Source: Escherichia phage JES2013. Taken from it: a DNA stretch of 64,000 nt. Within the stretch, counting starts at the first letter, position 1. Each line of letters begins with the position of its first letter. The DNA lies in the sequence record KC690136. The stretch is one strand, 5' to 3'. A program made the position numbers and the translations under genes. Below are positions 3,920 through 43,009 of this stretch, in pieces. Under the pieces are notes generated by a model, which worked only from the letters and a program-made list of their open reading frames with translations, did not search any database and had not been told where the DNA came from.

Positions 3920-4633
3920 ATGCTGAATACTAAACTGATCGACAACCTGGAAAAACTGTCTCAGCCTGAAAACTACCTTTGGTCTGCCAACTGGGTGGAA
4001 AACTGGAACCGTGTGGCAGCTAAGGTGAAAAAATCATACACACCATTCGAATTACAGCTTAGCTTCATTGAGGAAGAGTTCAATGAAGTTTTGGAAGAGC
4101 TGGAGAAAGGTGATGGTGGAGATCACTTGCTAAAAGAGGCCTGCGATCTTCATGTTGTCACAAGTTATGCCGCTTATCTTGTTAATGACAATCACGAAAA
4201 GTGGTCAAACCTGTTTGATAATCCACGAGGTATTAAGTTCAAGATTGGTGAGTTCTATGATACACTGATCGCTGCGAAAAACACCTCTAAGCAAAGAGCG
4301 TCTGCTTACCGCTTAGCAGAGTTGTCAACAGCTTTGCTGTTCCAGCTTCGCGGCGATGTGTGCGGGATGATGCGTAAGGTTCTCAAATCGAATGACAGCA
4401 AGTTTGCACGGGTCAACCATCTACGGTATTCACACGGTGCCAGTGCAGATATGCCTGCTGAACAACTCATCGAGTTGGAGATTAAAGATCTTGAGCGACG
4501 CTTTGATGGTCGATATGAAGGTTTTGTTGCTAAGGAAGAATTCTACAACGGTAATAAAGTTATCATATTCCTTGACAGTAAAGGTAAGATCATGAAGCCT
4601 TCAAGCTTCAAGGATGTAACAGAGTATATTTAA
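3920..4633 (+). CDS. MazG-like nucleoside triphosphate pyrophosphohydrolase domain protein
   Basis: EEEFNEVLEELEKGDGGDHLLKEACDL resembles MazG EExxE...E.GD...DL metal-binding helices. Confidence 0.5.
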   Translation: MLNTKLIDNLEKLSQPENYLWSANWVENWNRVAAKVKKSYTPFELQLSFIEEEFNEVLEELEKGDGGDHLLKEACDLHVVTSYAAYLVNDNHEKWSNLFDNPRGIKFKIGEFYDTLIAAKNTSKQRASAYRLAELSTALLFQLRGDVCGMMRKVLKSNDSKFARVNHLRYSHGASADMPAEQLIELEIKDLERRFDGRYEGFVAKEEFYNGNKVIIFLDSKGKIMKPSSFKDVTEYI

Positions 4634-4638
4634 CAACA

Positions 4639-4656
4639 TAGCCGGGATCACCCGGC
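4639..4656 (+). terminator. Stem-loop AGCCGGG-atca-CCCGGCT after gene stop
   Basis: 7-bp perfect stem directly after stop of 3920..4633; weak T tract. Confidence 0.4.
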
Positions 4657-4666
4657 TTTACTTGTT

Positions 4667-5005
4667 GTGGAAAGTATGCAAGTGAGGCAGATAGTTATGT
4701 ACAAGCACTCTAGAGATCTTGAAAACGATGCTGTGTTTGGGGATCAGATGAAAGAGTTGGTTAAACTCATAGGCAGGATAGAGGATAAGTTTGACACTAA
4801 GATCTACATCGACAGCAAAGTATTCAACCACAAAATATGGACAAATCTGTGTGTTGGACTACATGGAGATAAAGATGTTGTAAATTTAGTTGTAATTAGG
4901 TTCATAGTGTGGCAGAATAAAACTATAAATTATTACGATCCACACCTGCTTGTTTACCCGATAAAAGACCTATTAGATAAGGAGGACTGCAATGCCGTTA
5001 TTTAA
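4667..5005 (+). CDS. Hypothetical protein
   Basis: ORF in co-oriented block; start uncertain. Confidence 0.35.
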   Translation: MESMQVRQIVMYKHSRDLENDAVFGDQMKELVKLIGRIEDKFDTKIYIDSKVFNHKIWTNLCVGLHGDKDVVNLVVIRFIVWQNKTINYYDPHLLVYPIKDLLDKEDCNAVI

Positions 5006-5261
5006 TCTTGCTAAACCTGTAGAAGCACACCAGTTTGACGGAAGCTCTTCATCAGTATCTGATCTGCAACGGTGGATTGATACAGGTGTGTTTACATCGT
5101 CACCTGTTCGGACCAGAGATCTTCGTCGTATGTGTGAGCTTGTAGAGCCGTTTGGTAACCTAGTCTTGTACCAGGGTGATTGGCTTGTTGATTTTATGGG
5201 GGACTGGTTGGTAATGAGTAAAGAAGAGATGTTTAAAATTTTTAAGGAAGAGGTAGAGTAA
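4992..5261 (+). CDS. Hypothetical protein
   Basis: 89-aa ORF ending at ligase start. Confidence 0.4.
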   Translation: MPLFNLAKPVEAHQFDGSSSSVSDLQRWIDTGVFTSSPVRTRDLRRMCELVEPFGNLVLYQGDWLVDFMGDWLVMSKEEMFKIFKEEVE

Positions 5262-6544
5262 TGCATCAAATCAAAACAACACTGTACGCACTGAACAAAG
5301 ATGGCAGCTACCAACAGTGGAAAGTATTCACGGATGGTGATAAGGTTATCGTAGAGTTTGGCAAGCTTGATGGTAAACTGCAATACAAAGAGACGATCTG
5401 CACACCTAAGAACGTAGGTCGTGCCAACGAGACTACAGCTGAGCAACAGGCCGAGCTTGAGGCTATCAGTAAGTGGGAAAAACAAGTCCGTCTGGGGTAT
5501 GTTGAAAACATGGAAGATTGCGAGCAGGGTGTTGACCTTTTACCCATGCTGGTGCATGACTATCTGAAGCGTGGCAAGGCACTTAAATTACCTTGCTGGA
5601 TCTTGCGTAAGTTAGATGGCCTTCGTCTGCTTGTTGTTTTCCAAAATGGTGAGCCTAAATTTATTTCCCGTGGTAATAAGTCCTACCCTATTCAAGGAAA
5701 GCTTTTAGAGCAACTTCGTTCTTTCCATTCTACCACTGGGATTAAACAACTTGATGGGGAACTATACATTCATGGTCTTCCTTTGCAGAAAATAGTGTCT
5801 CTTGCTAAACGGTGGCGCACACAGGAAGAGATTCAGGCCGAGATCGATAAAGACTATGAGGCAGATAAAAAACGCCGTCATGCCGCAATTAAGGCAGGCT
5901 TATCAACATACAAAAACTTCAACAAGGTAGATATTCCTGTCGATGTTGATCCTGTTCGTGATGATTTGCGTTACGGTGGGTACTGTAGCTACGATCTGGA
6001 GTATCACATTTTTGATATTCCTAGCGACAAGGTGTGGTGGGATCCAGAAACAGAGTCTGGACGCTGCAAGGATCTTATGGATGCAGAGGATACCGTTACC
6101 ACTCTGATGCTTGACCATATCAAGGTTGTTGACGCAGAGCTTGCGTACACAGTTGATCATTGCGAAGAATCTGTTGGTATATTCATGTCCGAAGGATATG
6201 AAGGTACCATTATGCGTAACTTCTGTGGTAAATATGAGTACGGTCAGCGAACATCTGAAGCATTGAAATGGAAAAAGTTCAACGACGCAGAGGTGAAAGT
6301 TATTGACGTTGAGAAAGATAAGAATGATGAAGGTGTTCTTATCTGTGTTGACAAGGAAGGTATTGTTGTTAAAATGAAGATGAAAGGTACGCACGAGGAG
6401 CGTAGCTATGACAGAATGCAGGAAATGATCGGCAAGTTTGTCACCTTCAAATATCAAGCAAGGACAGAAGACAACAACTACCAATTCCCTGTCGGTATCT
6501 GCGTCCGAAATGTTAACCCAGACACTTGGGAGGTGCTGGAATAA
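5261..6544 (+). CDS. ATP-dependent DNA ligase
   Basis: Motif I KLDGLR (KxDG), EGTIMR (motif IV-like), WKKF (motif V-like). Confidence 0.8.
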   Translation: MHQIKTTLYALNKDGSYQQWKVFTDGDKVIVEFGKLDGKLQYKETICTPKNVGRANETTAEQQAELEAISKWEKQVRLGYVENMEDCEQGVDLLPMLVHDYLKRGKALKLPCWILRKLDGLRLLVVFQNGEPKFISRGNKSYPIQGKLLEQLRSFHSTTGIKQLDGELYIHGLPLQKIVSLAKRWRTQEEIQAEIDKDYEADKKRRHAAIKAGLSTYKNFNKVDIPVDVDPVRDDLRYGGYCSYDLEYHIFDIPSDKVWWDPETESGRCKDLMDAEDTVTTLMLDHIKVVDAELAYTVDHCEESVGIFMSEGYEGTIMRNFCGKYEYGQRTSEALKWKKFNDAEVKVIDVEKDKNDEGVLICVDKEGIVVKMKMKGTHEERSYDRMQEMIGKFVTFKYQARTEDNNYQFPVGICVRNVNPDTWEVLE

Positions 6545-6686
6545 TTTAGGTATGTTTAGTAGCCAATTGAATAAGTGTTTTCAATTTGCACCTACATATG
6601 CCCTGATGTATGAACTGTGCAACCTAGCCACACCACACAGTGGTGCTGATCGGGGCTCGTTATGAGTGAACTGGAGAGTATGAAAA

Positions 6687-7157
6687 ATGAAACTTGATAA
6701 AAATGTTCAACGAAAGGCTTTCTTGGATATGATCGCATATTCGGAAGGCACAGATAATGGTAGACAACCTACCAAGGATCGGGGATACGATGTCATAGTC
6801 GGAGGCAAGCTGTTCAGCGATTACAGCAAGCATCCCGGTGTTTACGTTAAGCTAAATGCTAAACTTACCTCCTCCGCTGCTGGGCGTTACCAGGTTTTGG
6901 AGAAGTTTGCTAAACACTACATGGAACAGTTAGGATTGCCAGATTTTGGCCCTGCCAGTCAGGACAAGATTGCGTTGCAACTGATCCGTGAGTGCAAGGC
7001 TCTCGCCGACATTGACGAAGGGCGTATCCACGAGGCTATCCATAAATGCCGTTCCCGCTGGGCTTCGTTACCTGGTGCTGGATATGGTCAGCATGAACAG
7101 AAGATCGAGAAGTTGATCGAGGTGTTTAAAAAGGCAGGCGGTGTTGTCCTTGATTGA
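6687..7157 (+). CDS. Endolysin, lambda R-type lytic transglycosylase/lysozyme
   Basis: Near full-length similarity to lambda R: QRKAFLDMIAYSEGTDNGRQ, GYDVIVGG, AAGRYQ, WASLPGAGYGQ. Confidence 0.9.
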   Translation: MKLDKNVQRKAFLDMIAYSEGTDNGRQPTKDRGYDVIVGGKLFSDYSKHPGVYVKLNAKLTSSAAGRYQVLEKFAKHYMEQLGLPDFGPASQDKIALQLIRECKALADIDEGRIHEAIHKCRSRWASLPGAGYGQHEQKIEKLIEVFKKAGGVVLD

Positions 7158-35392: not shown

Positions 35393-35721
35393 TGAAGATT
35401 GACCCGTTACTGAAGGCTCGTGCAGAAAAAGCGTACACCATTAAGCTGACCAACCTGGTTCCTACTTGTCATCCAGATGTAGGTTGGCCCGAAGGTTTGG
35501 TGGAGGGAACTGTAACAGCTGCATACCTTCCTAACATCAAATACCTCATGGAGATCTTAGAGATGGATGAGGAAACTGCAGAACAGTTCCAGTTGGATAT
35601 GAAACAGAGTGGGACTCTGGTTATTCACGGGTGGTATAATACTAAAGATGCAGAAGACCCTCTGGTAACTTCTAATCTGGCATATGAAATCTTAGGGCCT
35701 TTGAACCTGGAGGAAGACTAA
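35392..35721 (+). CDS. Small acidic protein
   Basis: 109-aa ORF, overlapping start/stop with neighbours. Confidence 0.5.
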   Translation: MKIDPLLKARAEKAYTIKLTNLVPTCHPDVGWPEGLVEGTVTAAYLPNIKYLMEILEMDEETAEQFQLDMKQSGTLVIHGWYNTKDAEDPLVTSNLAYEILGPLNLEED

Positions 35722-36008
35722 TGAAAGATCTGGTTAAGATTAAGATTAAAGATACCAATGGGGAGCTCAGCCATTTTGGAATTAATGATGGTGACGAGCT
35801 GATCGCACACCTGCCTACCAAGGAGGTTGTAAGCAAAGCAGTTGCCGGAGAAGAAGCTGCAATGCAGGCTGCAGGTGTGGATGAAAACTATGTAGCTATG
35901 TGCATGTGCCGAGATCAGGTTGTTCTGTATAAAGCGTATCGACCAAACGGAGCCACGGAGTGGCTTGTATTCCGACCCGAAGGATATGAAATCTTAGAGG
36001 CACTATGA
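35721..36008 (+). CDS. Small acidic protein
   Basis: MKDLVKIKIKDTNGE...GYEILEAL. Confidence 0.5.
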   Translation: MKDLVKIKIKDTNGELSHFGINDGDELIAHLPTKEVVSKAVAGEEAAMQAAGVDENYVAMCMCRDQVVLYKAYRPNGATEWLVFRPEGYEILEAL

Positions 36009-36088
36009 TAAATCTTGCCAAGGTTGCAACGGCACTGTTAATTATTTGCTGGTCAGTAACCTTAACACTGTGTCTTGTATTTCAGTGA
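36005..36088 (+). CDS. Small hydrophobic peptide (27 aa)
   Basis: sORF MINLAKVATALLIICWSVTLTLCLVFQ; ATG overlaps upstream stop. Confidence 0.3.
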   Translation: MINLAKVATALLIICWSVTLTLCLVFQ

Positions 36089-36097
36089 GGTGCTTGT

Positions 36098-36361
36098 ATG
36101 AACATCCTGATGTGGGTTATAGCAGTGGCGTTTGTTGCATGTTTTTGCTGCTGGGTTGCGGTGAGGATTTCTGTAGCTACCCTTCGGAAGTTGGGGTTCT
36201 CAGAATGGGATATTAATATCCTTTCTTTTCGCAATGAGACAATATCAGCCGCCCTGCTTTGTAAGAAATTCAAGTGGGAACCTTGTGAGGTCATGAACTA
36301 TCTAAGAACGGGAGATATCCCTGAAAGATTTAAAAAAGTTCTTGACGGTAAGGATAAATGA
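36098..36361 (+). CDS. Membrane-anchored protein
   Basis: N-terminal TM MNILMWVIAVAFVACFCCWVAV. Confidence 0.5.
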   Translation: MNILMWVIAVAFVACFCCWVAVRISVATLRKLGFSEWDINILSFRNETISAALLCKKFKWEPCEVMNYLRTGDIPERFKKVLDGKDK

Positions 36362-36389
36362 TAGTATAGTGACTAACAAGAGGTGAGGA

Positions 36390-36530
36390 ATGACAGATTT
36401 TACTGAAGCTTTAATGATGGCCTTGTCTGTTTTAGCGCTATCGGTGTGTTTTGGGGCGTTATTCACATCTCTGGTTAAAGTTTTACATACAGTATTATTA
36501 CCCAAGGAGCGCAGTAATGACGAAGATTGA
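36390..36530 (+). CDS. Small membrane peptide (46 aa)
   Basis: sORF MTDFTEALMMALSVLALSVCFGALFTSLVKVLHTVLL...; GGTGAGG SD. Confidence 0.3.
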   Translation: MTDFTEALMMALSVLALSVCFGALFTSLVKVLHTVLLPKERSNDED

Positions 36531-36768
36531 CTTGAATGCTGGCGACCATGTTGTTGTCAAATGCATCGGAGATTATCTTGGATTCACAATCGGCAATACT
36601 TACGAGGCGGTAGTGGCGAAGGTTTATCATGATAAAGTCCTCAGTCTTGTATTTGACTGCGATGATGATGGGGATGACCGATACGTCTGTGAGGTGCTGG
36701 CACGAGACGATAGTGAAGACCAGAAATTCCTGGTTATTGAACTGAACGGTATTTTTGTAGAACGTTAA
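36517..36768 (+). CDS. Hypothetical protein
   Basis: Start refined to ATG after AAGGAG (MTKIDLNAGDHVV). Confidence 0.45.
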   Translation: MTKIDLNAGDHVVVKCIGDYLGFTIGNTYEAVVAKVYHDKVLSLVFDCDDDGDDRYVCEVLARDDSEDQKFLVIELNGIFVER

Positions 36769-36796
36769 TTTAAAACAACATAAGGAGACTCTTACT

Positions 36797-37102
36797 ATGG
36801 CTAAATCTAAAGTTGAACTGTTCACCTCTCTTCCTTCTGACACTGCAGAGCGTGATCGCCTTCGCAAAACAATCGAAGAACTGGTGGAACTCCAACTTCA
36901 GATTAAAGATCTGAAAGATGCCATCAAGGATATCATTCTTGTTGAGAAGCAGGATCATCTGTATTCTCCTAAATTCATCAAATCTCTGGTGGCTACCGAG
37001 TTCGATATTCGATATGAGGCTGAAAAACGTCGAGCTAAAATCGAAGAAGAGGTTGAGCACATGTCCGAGGCAGACATTCTGTTCAAACGCTCTGTAGAAT
37101 AA
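36797..37102 (+). CDS. Hypothetical coiled-coil protein
   Basis: Charged heptad-like sequence; AAGGAG SD. Confidence 0.55.
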   Translation: MAKSKVELFTSLPSDTAERDRLRKTIEELVELQLQIKDLKDAIKDIILVEKQDHLYSPKFIKSLVATEFDIRYEAEKRRAKIEEEVEHMSEADILFKRSVE

Positions 37103-37110
37103 TGACAAAG

Positions 37111-37135
37111 AGAGGGGCTTGGGCCCCTCTTTTTA
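37111..37135 (+). terminator. Rho-independent terminator GAGGGGC-ttgg-GCCCCTC + TTTTT
   Basis: Perfect 7-bp GC stem and T tract after stop. Confidence 0.7.
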
Positions 37136-37157
37136 CTATCTATGAAGGAGATTTGAG

Positions 37158-37484
37158 ATGGGTATACCGATCACTGTAAAAGAATTGAATGAACGTGATG
37201 CAGGTGGTCTATGGCCTGCACGAAAAATACGCTGCGTCTACATGAAAGAGAACCTTGAACATCTTGATCAACAGATCAAGGTCGGTGATATTTTCGAGGT
37301 CTTCTATTCCAATCGTCGCAACTGGGAAACCATTCAGCCTTCTGGTTTTGTTCTTGCCAAACTTGACACTGGAGAAGTGATTATCCCAGGGTTGGATATT
37401 GTCTTCGAAATTATCCAGGAGTGGGATCCGGATAAGATTAGATATGAAGAGTTATTCGGTGAAGGTATTATCAAACCTGTGTGA
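37158..37484 (+). CDS. Hypothetical protein
   Basis: 108-aa ORF. Confidence 0.5.
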   Translation: MGIPITVKELNERDAGGLWPARKIRCVYMKENLEHLDQQIKVGDIFEVFYSNRRNWETIQPSGFVLAKLDTGEVIIPGLDIVFEIIQEWDPDKIRYEELFGEGIIKPV

Positions 37485-37792
37485 GGTGGATTATGTCTAC
37501 AAAGACGGCTAAATACTCCTACATGCCATCAACCTCTGCAGAGGTAGATTTTAGTTTCGATGTGTTTCCACTGTTTGAGGTGGTTCTGGCATACCCAACA
37601 ATACTATCTACTCCGGAATCACTTGTGCCTGTTAAGTTGCAGAACGCCATGCATTCTATGCACTACAACAATAAATGCAGGCACAGATGGTGTCAGGACG
37701 AGGAAAAAGATCTGGATAGTTTGAGAGATTTTGACAGTCACCTTTTGACACCTTTCAGCTACTCCAACCTTGATAAGCCATCATGGGTATAG
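37481..37792 (+). CDS. Hypothetical protein
   Basis: 103-aa ORF. Confidence 0.45.
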   Translation: MRWIMSTKTAKYSYMPSTSAEVDFSFDVFPLFEVVLAYPTILSTPESLVPVKLQNAMHSMHYNNKCRHRWCQDEEKDLDSLRDFDSHLLTPFSYSNLDKPSWV

Positions 37793-37816
37793 CAAAATAT
37801 CAAATTTAAGACACCT

Positions 37817-37844
37817 AGGACGCTCTGTGGCGTCCTTTTCTTTA
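37817..37844 (+). terminator. Rho-independent terminator AGGACGC-tctgtg-GCGTCCT + TTTCTTT
   Basis: 7-bp stem, T-rich tail, just after 37792 stop. Confidence 0.7.
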
Positions 37845-38005
37845 TCTGGTGCACGATTGCATACCTTGGACAGATAATCTCCTTACAGAGCGTTTAAGAG
37901 CTTCCTACAAACAACTCTCTTTTTCGAGCGTAGCGAGAACGCACGTCCGTTTTGACCAAAATCACCATACGCTCGGATTTTAACCAAACCCTCGCGGCGT
38001 TTCTG

Positions 38006-38034
38006 TTGACACATTGCCGCTCCAGTGATAATAT
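38006..38034 (+). promoter_or_regulatory. Sigma70-like promoter TTGACA-N17-TAATAT
   Basis: Consensus hexamers; lies inside track ORF 37952..38365, so that ORF's 5' part is unlikely to be coding. Confidence 0.6.
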
Positions 38035-38054
38035 CCACACATCATTTGGAGAAT

Positions 38055-38156
38055 ATGGAATACACAATGAAAACATTGTCCGAAGTTTTAGTGGTGATCC
38101 TGATGATCATTACGTCCATAGCGGCTGTTGCCGGAATACTCACGGGTGGAACATGA
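38055..38156 (+). CDS. Small membrane peptide (33 aa)
   Basis: sORF MEYTMKTLSEVLVVILMIITSIAAVAGILTGGT; GGAG SD; stop overlaps next ATG (ATGA). Confidence 0.35.
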   Translation: MEYTMKTLSEVLVVILMIITSIAAVAGILTGGT

Positions 38157-38365
38157 TCAACACACATGCATCTGAAGAGACATCAAAAGGAGTGACTATA
38201 TGTCCCTTGGCTGAGCCAGTGAAAGAGGAAAACTTCGATTCTGAAGATTCTCCATCTTCGCTCCAGGTAGACCCTGAGGCTGATGACCTAACGTGGGAAG
38301 ACATCGTAGATATCTGGTTCTCTGTTATGCCTGAGCACGAAGAGTTCAGGGGTGGTAGACTATGA
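38153..38365 (+). CDS. Hypothetical acidic protein
   Basis: 70-aa ORF translationally coupled to upstream peptide. Confidence 0.4.
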   Translation: MINTHASEETSKGVTICPLAEPVKEENFDSEDSPSSLQVDPEADDLTWEDIVDIWFSVMPEHEEFRGGRL

Positions 38366-38486
38366 AGCACCGAGCCCACACAAGTTCCTCATGCTAAAGC
38401 ATGGCCTGAAGAGGCAAACGTGCATAATTCCTGTGCATCGGAACGTATGAAACCTTGTTCACACTCTCATTTCCAGAGGAGATTTT

Positions 38487-38702
38487 ATGAAGATAGAAAT
38501 ATTTGGTGGAGCTGACAACACTCGTGGCCTGATTTACCTTGAATTCGATGAATCATACCTACCAGAGGTGTTAAATATAGACTCTGTTGCGGAGGCTTTG
38601 GGAGTAAACCCTAAAGAACTCCACTCTTGTGCTGAGATCGATGGTTGGGAAGAGACCATGAACATTGATTTCAGTGAAGTAGAGGATGAACCGCTGGACT
38701 GA
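38487..38702 (+). CDS. Small acidic protein
   Basis: MKIEIFGGADNTRGLIYLEFDE...; last gene of rightward block. Confidence 0.5.
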   Translation: MKIEIFGGADNTRGLIYLEFDESYLPEVLNIDSVAEALGVNPKELHSCAEIDGWEETMNIDFSEVEDEPLD

Positions 38703-39541
38703 CACACAATTAGCTGCCCGGCTAAAGTGCTGGAAGCACCTATAACACATCTTTCAACTAAATTTCCCACCACAACAATCACTTACCTCCCATACATGAC
38801 TGTTTGCTTGTTTAGTGAGCAGTCATGCCTTGACATTCTTGCCTATCCTGATAAAATTAAGTTCTTCTCTTTTCTTTTACCGAGTAATTCGGGTTTTCTG
38901 TTCTCTTCGGTTTGAAGGGGTATGGAGATACACCTGAGTGAACAGGGTGAACAACCGAACATTTGGCTATGGCATTAGCATGGCGAAGCGGACGGGTGAC
39001 GAAAGAGGGGCCGGAGGACACCAGTCACTGCCATATGGTATATGGGTGATAACCTGAAGAGTCTGAATAAGTGTTTAAGTACCAGTCAGAGGAAAAGGTG
39101 AATGGTAGCCGAAGGGGGAGGGGGGTTTCTTGTATCTTTAATTTGTATATTATGTATACACTTGTAAACCAATCTCATTTGAATTTGTTTACCACACAAA
39201 GTGGATAGAGACAAATATTACCTATTAAACTTGAATTATTTATAGAAAATACCACAACACTACTTAAGTCTTTGATTTTACACACAAATCCTGCAGATAT
39301 TCACCCTCCATATTTAACATACTTGTAACATATTCCATACTCTACCTGCCCGATCAATTCACCCAACTACATCCCCATATTTTCCCTGTCTGTACTACCC
39401 CTGCCCCGCCGGGAGTCCCGTCATATCTGGCTTTCCAGCAAATATCACACCCACAAATATCATTGCCTGAAGAGGGTTTCGTCCCATAATACATGCCTTA
39501 CCTGAAGAGCGCTTCATATACCCCGTAAATTTTTTAATTGA

Positions 39542-39574
39542 CCCCCTCCCCGCCGCCGGAGGGGTCGGCTTTTC
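39542..39574 (+). terminator. Terminator-like hairpin CCCCTCC-ccgccgcc-GGAGGGG + TCGGCTTTT
   Basis: GC-rich stem followed by T tract in gene-free region. Confidence 0.5.
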
Positions 39575-40120
39575 CCACACAGACCTGAAGAGTCAGCCAG
39601 AAATATCTGAATGGACCCAATTCTGCCCTGTTATGAGCCGTAGCGACTGGAGTGCTGCCAGGCGGACGAAATGGGAATACTTCTCATTCTTATAACAATT
39701 CTCAAATATCGAGGCAGTGAGGCAAATTAATAGGTAAGGCCGTTCACATAGTGGCACAACATTTGCAGTCTATCTGATGTGGTTGAATGAGAATACCTAT
39801 CATTGTGAGAATAGTTATCATTACGGGCAATTTAACATAATACCCATTATGCGCACCACTGGCGATACATACAGGGATTGATAACATGAGTTACTGTTTA
39901 CGCATATAACAATTATATTTCTTATCATTTGTGTGGGATATAGTTAGCAGCCGATAGATTAGATATTGACCTGCGGACTTCTGACCGTCTAGACGTCTAA
40001 ACGCCCACACAACAAGGCTTATACATACATCGCTGAATGTAAACATGGCCGCAAAAATGCTACCATACAAGATTGTAAATTTTTCATGCAGCACTTGACA
40101 AAGAGGAGAAAAACTTGTCT

Positions 40121-40162
40121 GACACTTTAGACATACTGGTGACACAATATGACACTTTAGAC
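40121..40162. repeat. Direct repeat GACACTTTAGAC (two copies, 30 bp apart), followed by iterated TGTTTAC/TGTTCAC motifs to about 40360
   Basis: Exact 12-mers at 40121 and 40151; at least eight (A)CTGTTTAC-like motifs in the next 200 bp. Confidence 0.55.
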
Positions 40163-40449
40163 TTAATTGACATGCCTGACTGTTTACGCTGTCACTATTC
40201 GCGCTATTACTATTCACTCCCTTTACTGTTCACGCTCTTACTGTTTACATGCTTAATGGTTTACATGCTTAATAGACTGCATGTCTAATAGTTTACATAG
40301 CTAACTGTTCACATACTTATCATTTACATGATTGACTGTTTACACAGAGATGATAAGCCATGACATTCGTTTGCATGACAATAATTAACAAGATAACAAT
40401 TGACAAGCTAACAGCCAACAAGCTGACAATTAACTTGTTTACAATAGAT

Positions 40450-40615
40450 GACATAATATAAAAGCAGGGCAACTATTAGAAGATCTATAGTTGCCTTGCT
40501 TGTTATGTCATGATTAACTAAATACAAGGCAACTATGATCTGATTAATAGTTTGCAAACAAACTATCACGGGGGTGATGGTTACTGCTTTTATATTATGT
40601 CGCGACTCCGTCGCG
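40450..40615. repeat. Nested inverted repeats: 18-bp arms GACATAATATAAAAGCAG / CTGCTTTTATATTATGTC around palindrome GGCAACTAT-N10-ATAGTTGCC, plus CGCGAC-tcc-GTCGCG
   Basis: Arms at 40450-40467 and 40584-40601 are exact reverse complements; inner palindrome 40468-40495; GGCAACTAT also recurs at about 40517 and 40634. Confidence 0.6.
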
Positions 40616-41295
40616 CCATGCCATTCGTTTGCATAGTTGCCTTATTGTTACAGATAAAATAATTGTATTGTTAATTATTTCTTATCTTTCTATTAGTCAT
40701 CTAATGATTCCAGTCAATATAGTAATGTACAGTAAACATTAGACGACTAAAGATTTATCTGCTTATAATAACTTACCGTGACAATTTCGGACTGTTTACG
40801 AAAAATGTTGGCACCTAAGCTGATTTATGTTATGCAGTTTACACGAATAATTATTTTATGCAGGTATTGACTATTCCATTATTCTATGGTTGGAATAAAT
40901 ACTTAGCAGACTATAGAATGGTGAGCGTACGTAAATTCTGAGATCTGGCGGCTATAGTTATACTCGATTTTTCACGTAGAGCACGCTTTTGTGGTTATGT
41001 AAGTGTATGACTTATAAAGATTTTTAGTTGTTGACAAGACACTGAAGATATGCATCAGGTTAAATTTTGTGCAATAGCTGCATTACGTGCAATTTTGGAA
41101 GGAAAAACGGGTAAAAATAGCCCTGCTACCACACAATGAAAAGTTATGCAATAGTTATTTTACATGTATATTTGTACAGTGTGTGGGGTTGATGGCTCGT
41201 CAATTATTCCACTTGCCAGGTAGGGCCGTTTATGGTAGGGGGAAGATCAGACAAAAAGAAAGGGGCCTAAGCCCCTTGATAATTCAGTTAAAAAA

Positions 41296-41715
41296 TTATA
41301 ATGATTCGTATATTTCAAAAATCCGATTTGCCAGGTCGTTACGGTACCGGAATTTTTCATCACGTTTGATCATAAGATCTTTATAGCCGTACTCTTTAAG
41401 CACTTCATTAACTTTATGGCGGCACACCTTCATATTATCCTGAGCGTCACCAATAAACCTGTTGCTATGGTGCATGGCTTTAATTTCTTCTTCCAGGACC
41501 AGGGCAACTATGCGGACCGGATCAAGCTGATAGGCGGTAACATCAATGCGGCATTGTAAACGGCTTTTTACGTCTGCCACCGGATATACTGCAACCTCTT
41601 CCCCGTCAACATTGACAATAATTAGTTTACCATCGATTTCGAATCCTTTCGCCGCCGGACCGTGACAAAAAGCGTTATCAAAGCTATATGCCGGATTATT
41701 AGATTTAATGTTCAT
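41296..41715 (-). CDS. Hypothetical protein
   Basis: 139-aa ORF; last gene of leftward block. Confidence 0.5.
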   Translation of the reverse strand: MNIKSNNPAYSFDNAFCHGPAAKGFEIDGKLIIVNVDGEEVAVYPVADVKSRLQCRIDVTAYQLDPVRIVALVLEEEIKAMHHSNRFIGDAQDNMKVCRHKVNEVLKEYGYKDLMIKRDEKFRYRNDLANRIFEIYESL

Positions 41716-41860
41716 GGTGTTTTTACCTCTTAGTTAATTTTCTTACAACTTCCCTTTAAAAAAGAATATAGCAAAACTGCCGATCCTTGTCAATAAGGAT
41801 AGCATAATTTTTATGTGATCAAGGGGCTTTATTGCCCCCCTGACCATGTAACTTGTTGTA

Positions 41861-42124
41861 TTATTTGTTATTCATCCAGTTTTCCCAAGCTGCCTGATAA
41901 TCTGCTTCACTGCGGCGGATCTCTTCTTGCTCTTCAAGTCGGATCTCTTCTTCCAGGTACCCCAGGATATCGGCTTTTTTGGTCTGGCGTAACATCCAAT
42001 CATCTTTTTTACGGGTAAAGATCTTATATGCTTTCTCGCAAACCTCTTTTTTGCTACCTTTTTGGACTTCAAGAACTTTGTAGGCCATGTACTGAACTAG
42101 TTTGAGCTGATCAAGACGTTTCAT
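41861..42124 (-). CDS. Hypothetical protein
   Basis: 87-aa charged ORF. Confidence 0.45.
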   Translation of the reverse strand: MKRLDQLKLVQYMAYKVLEVQKGSKKEVCEKAYKIFTRKKDDWMLRQTKKADILGYLEEEIRLEEQEEIRRSEADYQAAWENWMNNK

Positions 42125-42184
42125 GATGTTTACCTCTTTATGCGGTTCTGATTAGTGGGCCTTTTGGCCCGTGTCATTATCTTA

Positions 42185-42457
42185 TTACTTATGGCGGCAG
42201 AATTCAAGCGTTTTTAATTGATAATCTTCCTCAGCCTGGAGTACGACCGCCTCGATCATTTCGTTGGCATTGTTAAAGCCATAACCTTTAGCGAAATCAT
42301 CCGCGCCACCTTCGTGATCATGTTCTGCGTTCATCGCTTCCACAAAATGGAATTCCAAATTGTTGAGGTAGGGGCTTGATGTTCCGTCCTCTTTTTCGAT
42401 GAGATCCCAAATAGCATTAAAACGTGATTCTACTTCTTGATTAATCCAGCTTGACAC
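42185..42457 (-). CDS. Hypothetical acidic protein
   Basis: 90-aa ORF. Confidence 0.5.
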   Translation of the reverse strand: MSSWINQEVESRFNAIWDLIEKEDGTSSPYLNNLEFHFVEAMNAEHDHEGGADDFAKGYGFNNANEMIEAVVLQAEEDYQLKTLEFCRHK

Positions 42458-42668
42458 AGTGTTTTCCTCTCTTCTGGTTGTTGTGTGGGCACTTTTGCCC
42501 CTTCAAGATAAATGTTACCCCACCCCATGGCAGATGTCAACGGTTTTTATAGTTCTTATATGACAGGCAGGCCCGGTGATTGTCTCCCCCCGTCGCCAGG
42601 TGCCTGCCGTGAAACAAGTATAACAAAAAACAGGACCATTGCAAGCCCTGTTTTGTAGTTTATAAATA

Positions 42669-42860
42669 TTATATTTTTTCGCCTATGTAGTCCGGTCGGT
42701 TTTTCTCTGTCATGCGCTTTAGCAATTCTTGCATGTTGCTTATGGCTTGTAGTGTATCCCCTTCCAGGCTTGAATCGACATAATCAGGATCGTCTATGAC
42801 CTTTCTATGATTATGATAACGCAGTACCGCCAATACCTTTCTGACTTGTTCGATATTCAT
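42669..42860 (-). CDS. Hypothetical protein
   Basis: 63-aa ORF. Confidence 0.45.
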   Translation of the reverse strand: MNIEQVRKVLAVLRYHNHRKVIDDPDYVDSSLEGDTLQAISNMQELLKRMTEKNRPDYIGEKI

Positions 42861-43009
42861 TTTTACCGCTCTTTAAAACAAGGTGCCAACCGTTTCCAAT
42901 AGATCACTGACTGCCAGGACAATACCGATCAGCACATATCTAACCATAAGGGGAAAGAGCGCCAATATTGCCACCACAATCCCCAAGGTGATAATTATCT
43001 TTCTCATGG

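Follow-up and report, generated by a model that had tools for sequence, protein, structure and literature searches.

The 64,000-nucleotide stretch of sequence record KC690136 considered here (hereafter the window) comes from Escherichia phage JES2013, and its DNA is that of a Vequintavirus, an rV5-like myophage. Between positions 38703 and 41295 lie 2,593 bases on which two blocks of genes converge: the plus-strand genes on the left, among them DNA ligase, NrdAB, NrdD and many small genes, stop at 38702, and the minus-strand genes on the right start at 41296 and extend from small genes to the gene of a family A DNA polymerase. A preliminary description of this DNA had noted the convergence, seen no convincing open reading frame (ORF) in the gap, and taken the dense repeats found there as the mark of a replication origin, a packaging site or a non-coding RNA locus. 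Of these options it is the packaging site that is supported, and comparison with related genomes makes it probable that we have here a concatemer junction: the genome would be linear and packaged as in T7, with ends that are fixed and carry a short direct terminal repeat (DTR).

E. coli O157 typing phage 4 matches the flagged bases at 99.8% identity, and BLAST aligned nearly their full length, at 88–95% identity, with 120 phage records, all of them Vequintavirus. Absence of the region from related phages, or conventional proteins encoded within it, had been named beforehand as what would tell against a functional locus; instead, the comparison with related genomes found the region kept in 120 of 120 related records, with no encoded proteins. 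The homologous stretch of rV5, 104014–106617, carries no annotation, and the rV5 paper placed a change of GC/AT skew at 104425–105475 and attributed it to the switch of transcription direction. Coding was assessed by the intactness of each ORF and by substitutions at the three codon positions in an alignment of 19 genomes. At codon positions 1/2/3 the two flanking genes carried 8/6/30 and 1/3/16 substitutions, whereas no ORF of the region showed third-position bias or synonymous excess and most were broken in relatives. Protein coding was ruled out in this way for every ORF of the region, and the ORFs annotated within the homologous region of some records are over-calls, given the absent coding signal. 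A scan for tRNA and tmRNA found none, and Rfam at permissive thresholds, run over 37000–43000 and 38800–39660, returned nothing above chance level. Pfam matched no family among the small proteins flanking the region, and no terminase among the eight window ORFs of at least 330 amino acids.

The evidence for genome ends comes from where other records begin and stop. In the BLAST listing, several GenBank records start or stop within the region at query positions 959 and 1417, 458 bases apart. The HdK5 record begins with GGCGGACGAAATGGG, which is window position 39661, finishes with GAGAAAAACTTGTC, which is window position 40119, and has an identical 458 bp at both ends, where the window has the homologous 459 bp once. 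At least five further records, among them bov11CS3, bov25_3, ECP2309 and YN3, also begin at the base homologous to 39661, and ECP2303 and Pr121LW stop at the right end homologous to 40119. Korf et al. reported 458-bp terminal redundancies in HdK5 and EdH4 and one of 328 bp in Schickermooser, and for Gotham a 459-bp terminal repeat with one fixed start has been published. Judged by this homology, 39661–40119 is the single-copy, junction form of a 459-bp DTR, and therefore the region as a whole reads as a concatemer junction, in which a right-end non-coding arm (38703–39660, 958 bp) is followed by the DTR and then by a left-end non-coding arm (40120–41295, 1176 bp). The convergence of the two gene blocks, correctly described beforehand, is an effect of circularising or permuting a linear genome in assembly, with the two ends of the virion DNA joined at this point.

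The sequences at the two cuts are shared well beyond the genus. The left cut lies in the context GGAGTGCTGCCA/GGCGGACGAAATGGG (39649–39675; the slash marks the cut), with base 39661 placed as the virion left end by homology to the HdK5 start, and the right cut follows CTTGACAAAGAGGAGAAAAACTTGTC/ at the DTR right end, 40119, placed by homology to the HdK5 end. KPP-1, which belongs to another genus, has a published 514-bp DTR, called T7-type by PhageTerm, whose coordinates fall on the homologous cut sequences, GTGCTA/GACGGAC on the left and CTTGACAAGGAGAGAGAATTGTGTT/ on the right. Both cut motifs occur at comparable spacing in the Seunavirus SSE-121 (left, GTGCTA/GACGGAC), and in Phapecoctavirus the record of Mt1B1_P17 begins and finishes with the same 328 bp, equal in length to the repeat published for Schickermooser, with a related left cut in that genus, GTGCTT/AACGCGA. 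Both cut-site sequences are conserved across three to four genera, a pattern that fits sequence-specific cutting.

The DTR itself is mostly 90–95% identical among relatives, and in Bas54 459 bp separate the same anchor sequences. Within it lie a palindromic box, TGAGAATAnnTATCATT, present twice in tandem at 39788–39822 and seen again within the KPP-1 and Mt1B1_P17 repeats; a core conserved in the subfamily at about 39830–39880, of which 39830–39859 finds short matches in several other Vequintavirinae genera; a palindrome at 39986–40003, recovered by repeat and inverted-repeat finding; and, at the right edge, a conserved leftward promoter-like site on the minus strand, TTGTCA-18-TACAAT, running from 40101 to 40072. 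The box, in the form AATGAGAATAnnTATCATT, stands twice within the DTR of three genera (window 39788–39822; record L012 at 56–75 and 235–254; record L028 at 2414–2467). The Phapecoctavirus version matches 14 of 16 positions of the E. coli Fur-box consensus, with a different spacing of the half-sites. A true Fur site in the tandem box was dropped as a candidate on account of that spacing, and we regard the likeness as resemblance only.

The right arm opens with the most strongly conserved part of the region. A predicted sigma-70 promoter with an extended -10 element, TTGACA-16 nt-TGaTAAAAT (38830–38857, plus strand), fits 11 of 12 consensus positions in addition to the TG extension and reads toward the DTR. 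Both of its hexamers are invariant in 18 relatives, while in the most divergent relative (L006) the spacer between them has been rewritten and is 2 nt longer. It is followed on the plus strand by a nearly invariant element of 264 nt (38864–39127), a candidate non-coding RNA or pre-primer by its conservation and its lack of a coding signal, which contains a small hairpin (38880–38892), one CCTGAAGAG at 39053 and a terminal G5AG6 run (39113–39124). Invariance sets in at the predicted +1 (38864) and ends with the G5AG6 run (about 39127). Identity in 50-nt bins is 0.97–1.00, above that of the adjacent protein gene and of the DTR; the element is at least 97.5% identical in every listed carrier, with 117 records at 95% or more, and is confined to Vequintavirus among the matches listed. 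The few changes include indels of 1–2 nt in G-runs, and the 19-genome alignment gives no coding signal.

That a non-coding RNA gene forms the core of the finding is a tentative reading, which we would not put at even chances and which is compatible with a genome junction at the same place. The host RNA polymerase (RNAP) would make an RNA of about 264 nt from the promoter at 38830, possibly extended to the hairpin at 39575, and this RNA would act in trans or in cis, for instance as a regulator, a decoy or a primer. Such a gene would account for promoter hexamers that stay fixed while their spacer varies, for invariance from the predicted +1 to the G-run, for conservation above that of the neighbouring protein gene and DTR, and for the missing coding signal together with the 1–2-nt indels. 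Of the few variable positions, most lie in predicted loops and one turns a G-U pair into A-U. The structural measures are less favourable: folding of the element gives z = -1.48 on the plus strand and -0.23 on the minus strand, neither significant, and the 718-nt span from promoter to hairpin gives a non-significant z = +0.41; none of 84 pairs covaries, a test with no power on a block that hardly varies. Rfam has no match to the element, the end of the block shows no clear intrinsic terminator, and its T-rich tail is not conserved in one haplotype. A literature search for RNA-seq or transcription-start data on Vequintavirus gave nothing relevant and no expression data, and constraint on the nucleotides could equally come from a signal in the DNA, for instance a site that the terminase recognises. 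The non-coding RNA of the preliminary description is plausible but unproven; its packaging site is supported by the genome ends and 459-bp repeat placed within the region, and by the arrays that adjoin the repeat as they do in T7.

A narrower version of the RNA reading concerns the end of the element. The G5AG6 run is complementary to the C-run CCCCCTCCCC (39543–39552), which lies within the left arm of a hairpin 420 nt downstream, and it resembles CSBII, the G-run where primer transcripts of mitochondrial DNA terminate. It is conceivable, though we think it rather unlikely, that the 264-nt element is a new genus-specific RNA, made by the host RNAP, whose 3' end at G5AG6 primes DNA synthesis toward the DTR; a stable RNA-DNA hybrid would form at the edge of the AT-rich DNA, as in ColE1 or at CSBII, and serve DTR duplication or the start of replication at the genome end. 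If true, this would help to explain why the locus does not tolerate insertions (see below).

Beyond the element, an AT-rich block (39128–39340, 62–75% A+T) is variable at 39128–39230 and conserved at 39237–39290, and the conserved part holds one match to the IHF consensus (39265–39277, minus strand) adjoining one to the DnaA-box consensus, TTTTACACA (39276–39284), against 0.25 and 0.21 expected. A C-rich conserved block follows (39341–39609, plus strand), with direct repeats ACCCCTGCCCCGCCG at 39397 and 39541 and three copies of CCTGAAGAG (39466, 39501 and 39584). In it stands a hairpin with a T-run (39541–39575, plus strand), which had been called terminator-like; it exists, at -16.1 kcal/mol here, and most relatives keep it merely as a weak and variable stem. 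Just outside the left cut is a hypervariable indel hotspot (39610–39648), with insertions of up to about 50 nt in relatives. Natural insertions have three hotspots in the region, at 39541 (up to about 70 nt), 39625 (about 50 nt) and 40503 (33 nt); extra DNA is tolerated there, even though the homologous locus of Bas54 yielded no transposon insertion at any point (see below).

The motifs of the preliminary description were counted in the region and compared with their density in the rest of the window on both strands, and every one is present where it had been placed and strongly enriched. CCTGAAGAG has four copies in the region (39053, 39466, 39501 and 39584), all on the plus strand, where 0.17 would be expected; another copy, the fifth, is found at 38405, and the three remaining copies of the window are intragenic and translated Pro-Glu-Glu. 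There are two copies of GACACTTTAGAC (40121 and 40151) against none expected; nine TGTT[TC]AC on the plus strand and four on the minus strand against 0.93; seven CTGTT[TC]AC on the plus strand against 0.13; two copies of CATTCGTTTGCAT, at 40364 and 40622; and two copies of GGCAACTAT on each strand against 0.04. Repeat and tandem-repeat finders recover the tandem or iterated arrays with their 15–16 bp period as well as the nested inverted repeats. CCTRAAGWG repeats, again on the plus strand only, are found in the right arm of SSE-121, where the variants CCTAAAGAG and CCTGAAGTG amount to five plus-strand-only copies at most 550 nt from the cut, and one is found in the right arm of KPP-1. CCTGAAGAG (window 38405, 39053, 39466, 39501 and 39584; record L032 at 1434–1814) is one base off the T7 heptamer CCTAAAG (records L030 and L031), a likeness that may be accidental or may point to a recognition element common to packaging of the T7 type.

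On the other side of the DTR, the left arm begins with two arrays on the plus strand. A TGACAY/GACAY array phased at about 10 bp (40120–40176) opens at the first base past the DTR, with GACAY at 40121, 40130, 40141, 40151 and 40169; an array abuts the DTR in every relative, varying in copy number and sequence. Next come some 11 iterons of the type (A)CTGTTYAC/TTTACA (40177–40346, families D1–D4) at 15–16 bp spacing, whose copies number from 1 to 11 among relatives, with module swaps, and which form the least conserved part of the region. Repeat finding and hairpin prediction then delimit a module between 20-bp direct repeats GCCATGMCATTCGTTTGCAT (40357–40634). It contains a variable 15-bp tandem repeat (40383–40434), the four GGCAACTAT sites, and a conserved block of nested inverted repeats in which a perfect 18-bp inverted pair (40450–40467 and 40584–40601) encloses two predicted hairpins that face each other, one reading as a minus-strand terminator (40462–40501) and one as a plus-strand terminator (40561–40582). 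Murica is annotated with a minus-strand terminator at about the position of the module, as far as an estimated coordinate mapping allows. In FV3 (L024, JQ031132) exactly the inter-repeat stretch corresponding to 40357–40634 is missing, and with it the whole inverted-repeat/GGCAACTAT module. Either recombination between the direct repeats has naturally deleted the module in a phage that is viable, in which case it is dispensable, or the assembly has collapsed there. An AT-rich non-coding stretch, 90–96% conserved and with several weak sigma-70-like sites on the plus strand (40635–41259), leads to the predicted intrinsic terminator of the adjoining 139-amino-acid (aa) gene (41260–41277, minus strand), a terminator annotated also in Murica and HdK5.

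Arrays of this kind raise the question of a replication origin, which the preliminary description had listed and which would be compatible with a junction. We regard an origin here as possible but doubtful, whether it is of the iteron type, built on the CTGTTYAC array and the adjoining AT-rich DNA, or transcription-primed, with the promoter at 38830 producing a structured pre-primer RNA as far as G5AG6 next to the AT-rich block with its DnaA box and IHF site. Comparable transcription-primed systems are the T7 primary origin, ColE1 RNA II and the mitochondrial G-run CSBII. About 11 iterons at 15–16 bp spacing with AT-rich DNA on both sides would suit the iteron type, and a conserved promoter with an invariant 264 nt that stops at a G-run directly before AT-rich DNA would suit the primed type; DnaA-box and IHF consensus sequences lie adjacent in a conserved stretch, the replisome genes are T7-like, and the homologous locus of Bas54 is free of insertions. 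Against this, even phages about 92% identical differ freely in the number and sequence of their iterons, DnaA and IHF are each represented by a single match, no initiator gene is adjacent, the flanking proteins having no Pfam match, and T7 has analogous arrays beside its repeat that are not known to serve as its primary origin. In the window, GC skew is positive on the left and negative on the right, with its cumulative peak here. Such a polarity is that of a terminus, or of transcription converging from both sides, and the reverse of an origin; it argues weakly against an origin and is confounded by gene orientation. It was to transcription orientation that the rV5 authors attributed the skew change at this place.

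The position of the left-end arrays could also be taken to mean that they act in DNA entry, as a pause or stop signal in ejection or as sites for end-protecting or host proteins. The terminal repeat of T5 includes a repeat-rich injection-stop region. The phased arrays begin at the first base past the DTR and near a genome end, the DTR of three genera carries a palindromic box that resembles the Fur box, and a DnaA-box consensus is present; the arrays are highly variable, however, and two-step entry is not known in these phages. We find a role in entry improbable.

Evidence of a different kind comes from phage MaxBurger (Bas54). The main text of a transposon-sequencing preprint (HIDEN-SEQ, bioRxiv 10.1101/2025.11.20.689424) describes an 'about 2 kb intergenic region' of Bas54 without insertions and suggests 'an important functional role' for it with no mechanism, and the term 'terminal repeat' is absent from that main text. 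The insertion-free region is the locus homologous to the one studied here, lying between bas54_0135 and bas54_0134, which are orthologous to the genes on either side of the flagged bases; it measures 2,512 bp, offers 224 TA target sites and contains the same 459-bp repeat. The identity of the locus as the genome ends is a likely explanation of its intolerance of insertions. These results also bear on the possibility that the region is functionless spacer, that is, decayed genes and the terminators of two convergent operons. Terminator-like hairpins and hypervariable parts are what such a spacer would show, but a region kept in all 120 relatives, with some blocks more conserved than the neighbouring genes, an architecture conserved across genera and a Bas54 counterpart that tolerates no insertions, makes it very improbable.

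Several points weigh against the concatemer junction as we have drawn it. The ends of the KC690136 phage itself are placed by homology to relatives. Two PhageTerm-based genome announcements call vequintaviruses circularly permuted or headful-packaged; the current versions of the bov records nevertheless begin exactly at the DTR left end, and we have given these announcements lower weight than the DTR reports. The roles in packaging that we assign to the repeats are argued by analogy, because no terminase binding site has been mapped in these phages. Iterons that number anywhere from 1 to 11, and an FV3 that does without the module, imply that not every element is essential, and the lability of the arrays sits uneasily with the total insertion intolerance seen in Bas54: natural indels and the FV3 deletion show parts to be dispensable, yet none of the 224 Bas54 TA sites took an insertion. 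The lack of insertions in Bas54 could stem partly from spacing, from transposon-borne transcription or from technical bias.

Several observations concern the surroundings of the region and its occurrence in other records. The 139-aa gene beside the left arm (41296–41715, minus strand) has a counterpart of 85–90% identity in Phapecoctavirus, which belongs to a different subfamily and likewise places the gene about 1 kb from the genome end, and it is missing in slur16, HMD-6, FV3 and VB-EcoM-WM; this distribution suggests that a terminal module has been exchanged between phage groups. Nineteen of the 120 matching records are named 'Campylobacter phage' (MG0656xx, host C. jejuni). Three of them were opened, and each bears the label UNVERIFIED and a Vequintavirus classification, so that these records probably represent E. 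coli phages brought along with the preparations. The only substantial match in a plasmid search was PLSDB entry CP057073.1, an E. coli 'plasmid' of 137,565 bp with the region at 4496–6981 (91% identity over 92% of the length), which because of its size suggests a complete vequintavirus genome deposited as a plasmid; the search otherwise gave one chance-level 40-nt match. No similarity to the region was found in 5,426 E. coli genomes, and IMG/VR yielded only three loci, of which one is Phapecoctavirus. A metagenome contig (L011) with a 20-mer in common with the DTR left end was rejected as a chance match within a glycine-rich bacterial gene. In the near-identical record of typing phage 4 (L004, KP869102; positions 1–2110, compared with window 35703–37812), large minus-strand genes, including a recD2-like helicase, are annotated just upstream; the corresponding stretch has small plus-strand genes in naswa, Murica and rV5 and small plus-strand ORFs in the window. 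This 'partial genome' record may contain a rearrangement or an assembly error there.

Taken as a concatemer junction, the region can be given a working scheme. The virion DNA would begin at 39661 running rightward and end at 40119 arriving from the left, so that the 459 bp would stand at both ends. The terminase would recognise conserved sequences at and near both cut sites, cutting at GTGCTGCCA/GG and CTTGTC/TG; candidate signals are the plus-strand CCTGAAGAG repeats of the right arm, the conserved core of the DTR and, in the left arm, the TGACAY and CTGTTYAC arrays with their regular phasing. The DTR may be duplicated by replication, as in T7, and the convergent terminators would insulate the junction from transcription of both arms. 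The promoter at 38830 would send a transcript toward the DTR from the position that phiOR occupies in T7, and the invariant first 264 nt of this transcript may serve replication or the duplication of the ends, either as an RNA in its own right or by forming a primer.

The rV5-like phages are widely isolated and are used in the typing, biocontrol and therapy of E. coli, and many of their deposited genomes have been opened at arbitrary points, with some described as circularly permuted. Ends at 39661 and 40119 would supply a natural start coordinate for the genus. They are also a likely reason why one large locus could not be touched in a genome-wide transposon screen, and for phage engineering they show where cargo should not go. 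The two cut motifs, the CCTGAAGAG repeats, the two phased arrays and the invariant element constitute testable cis elements for packaging, end duplication and replication, and of these the promoter-driven 264-nt element is the part most worth an experiment.

Short-DTR ends of vequintaviruses are already published, and the repeats described for Vequintavirinae and Phapecoctavirus (HdK5, EdH4, Gotham, KPP-1 and Schickermooser) are the same element, with the same boundary sequences as in the window. Those reports give length or coordinates only, without flanking arrays, cross-genus cut motifs or an invariant element, and they do not tie the repeat to a gene-free convergence zone. What is new here is the placement of the ends in that zone, the cut motifs shared across genera, the anatomy of the repeats, the link to Bas54 and the invariant element; the literature searched contained no description of the junction anatomy or of the 264-nt element. 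Iteron and transcription-primed origins (plasmid iterons, the T7 primary origin and ColE1 RNA II) resemble the region in their regularly spaced 8-mers, AT-rich DNA and upstream promoter, and the region differs from them in having no adjacent initiator gene, the opposite skew polarity and poorly conserved iterons.

The closest parallel is with the ends of T7. In the T7 record a 160-bp repeat runs directly into CCTAAAG copies arrayed about 13 bp apart; the left end has 924 non-coding bases with the leftward host promoter A0, phiOL and A1–A3, and the right arm has phiOR, pointed at the right repeat. The two phages are alike in their fixed ends, in a direct terminal repeat that is short and exact and has several hundred non-coding bases on each side, in a same-strand array of short repeats right after the DTR (CCTAAAG at about 13 bp in T7; TGACAY at about 10 bp and CTGTTYAC at 15–16 bp in the window), and in a right-arm promoter toward the repeat together with a leftward host-type promoter near the left end. 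The CCTGAAGAG of the right arm, like CCTAAAGAG and CCTGAAGTG in SSE-121, resembles the T7 heptamer, perhaps by chance, and the T7-like replication genes comprise the family A polymerase of the window and a gp4-like primase-helicase that the rV5 paper reports as encoded in rV5. The differences are equally plain. A 136-kb myovirus with a 459-bp repeat and a 2.6-kb junction stands beside a 40-kb podovirus with 160 bp and about 1.3 kb; the promoters here are of the host sigma-70 type, and no phage RNA polymerase is known in the rV5-like group. The genes of both arms point toward the ends here, whereas all T7 genes are rightward. The cut-site sequences are unrelated to those of T7, and the junction described here adds two distinct arrays, a nested inverted-repeat module and a 264-nt invariant element that has no T7 counterpart.

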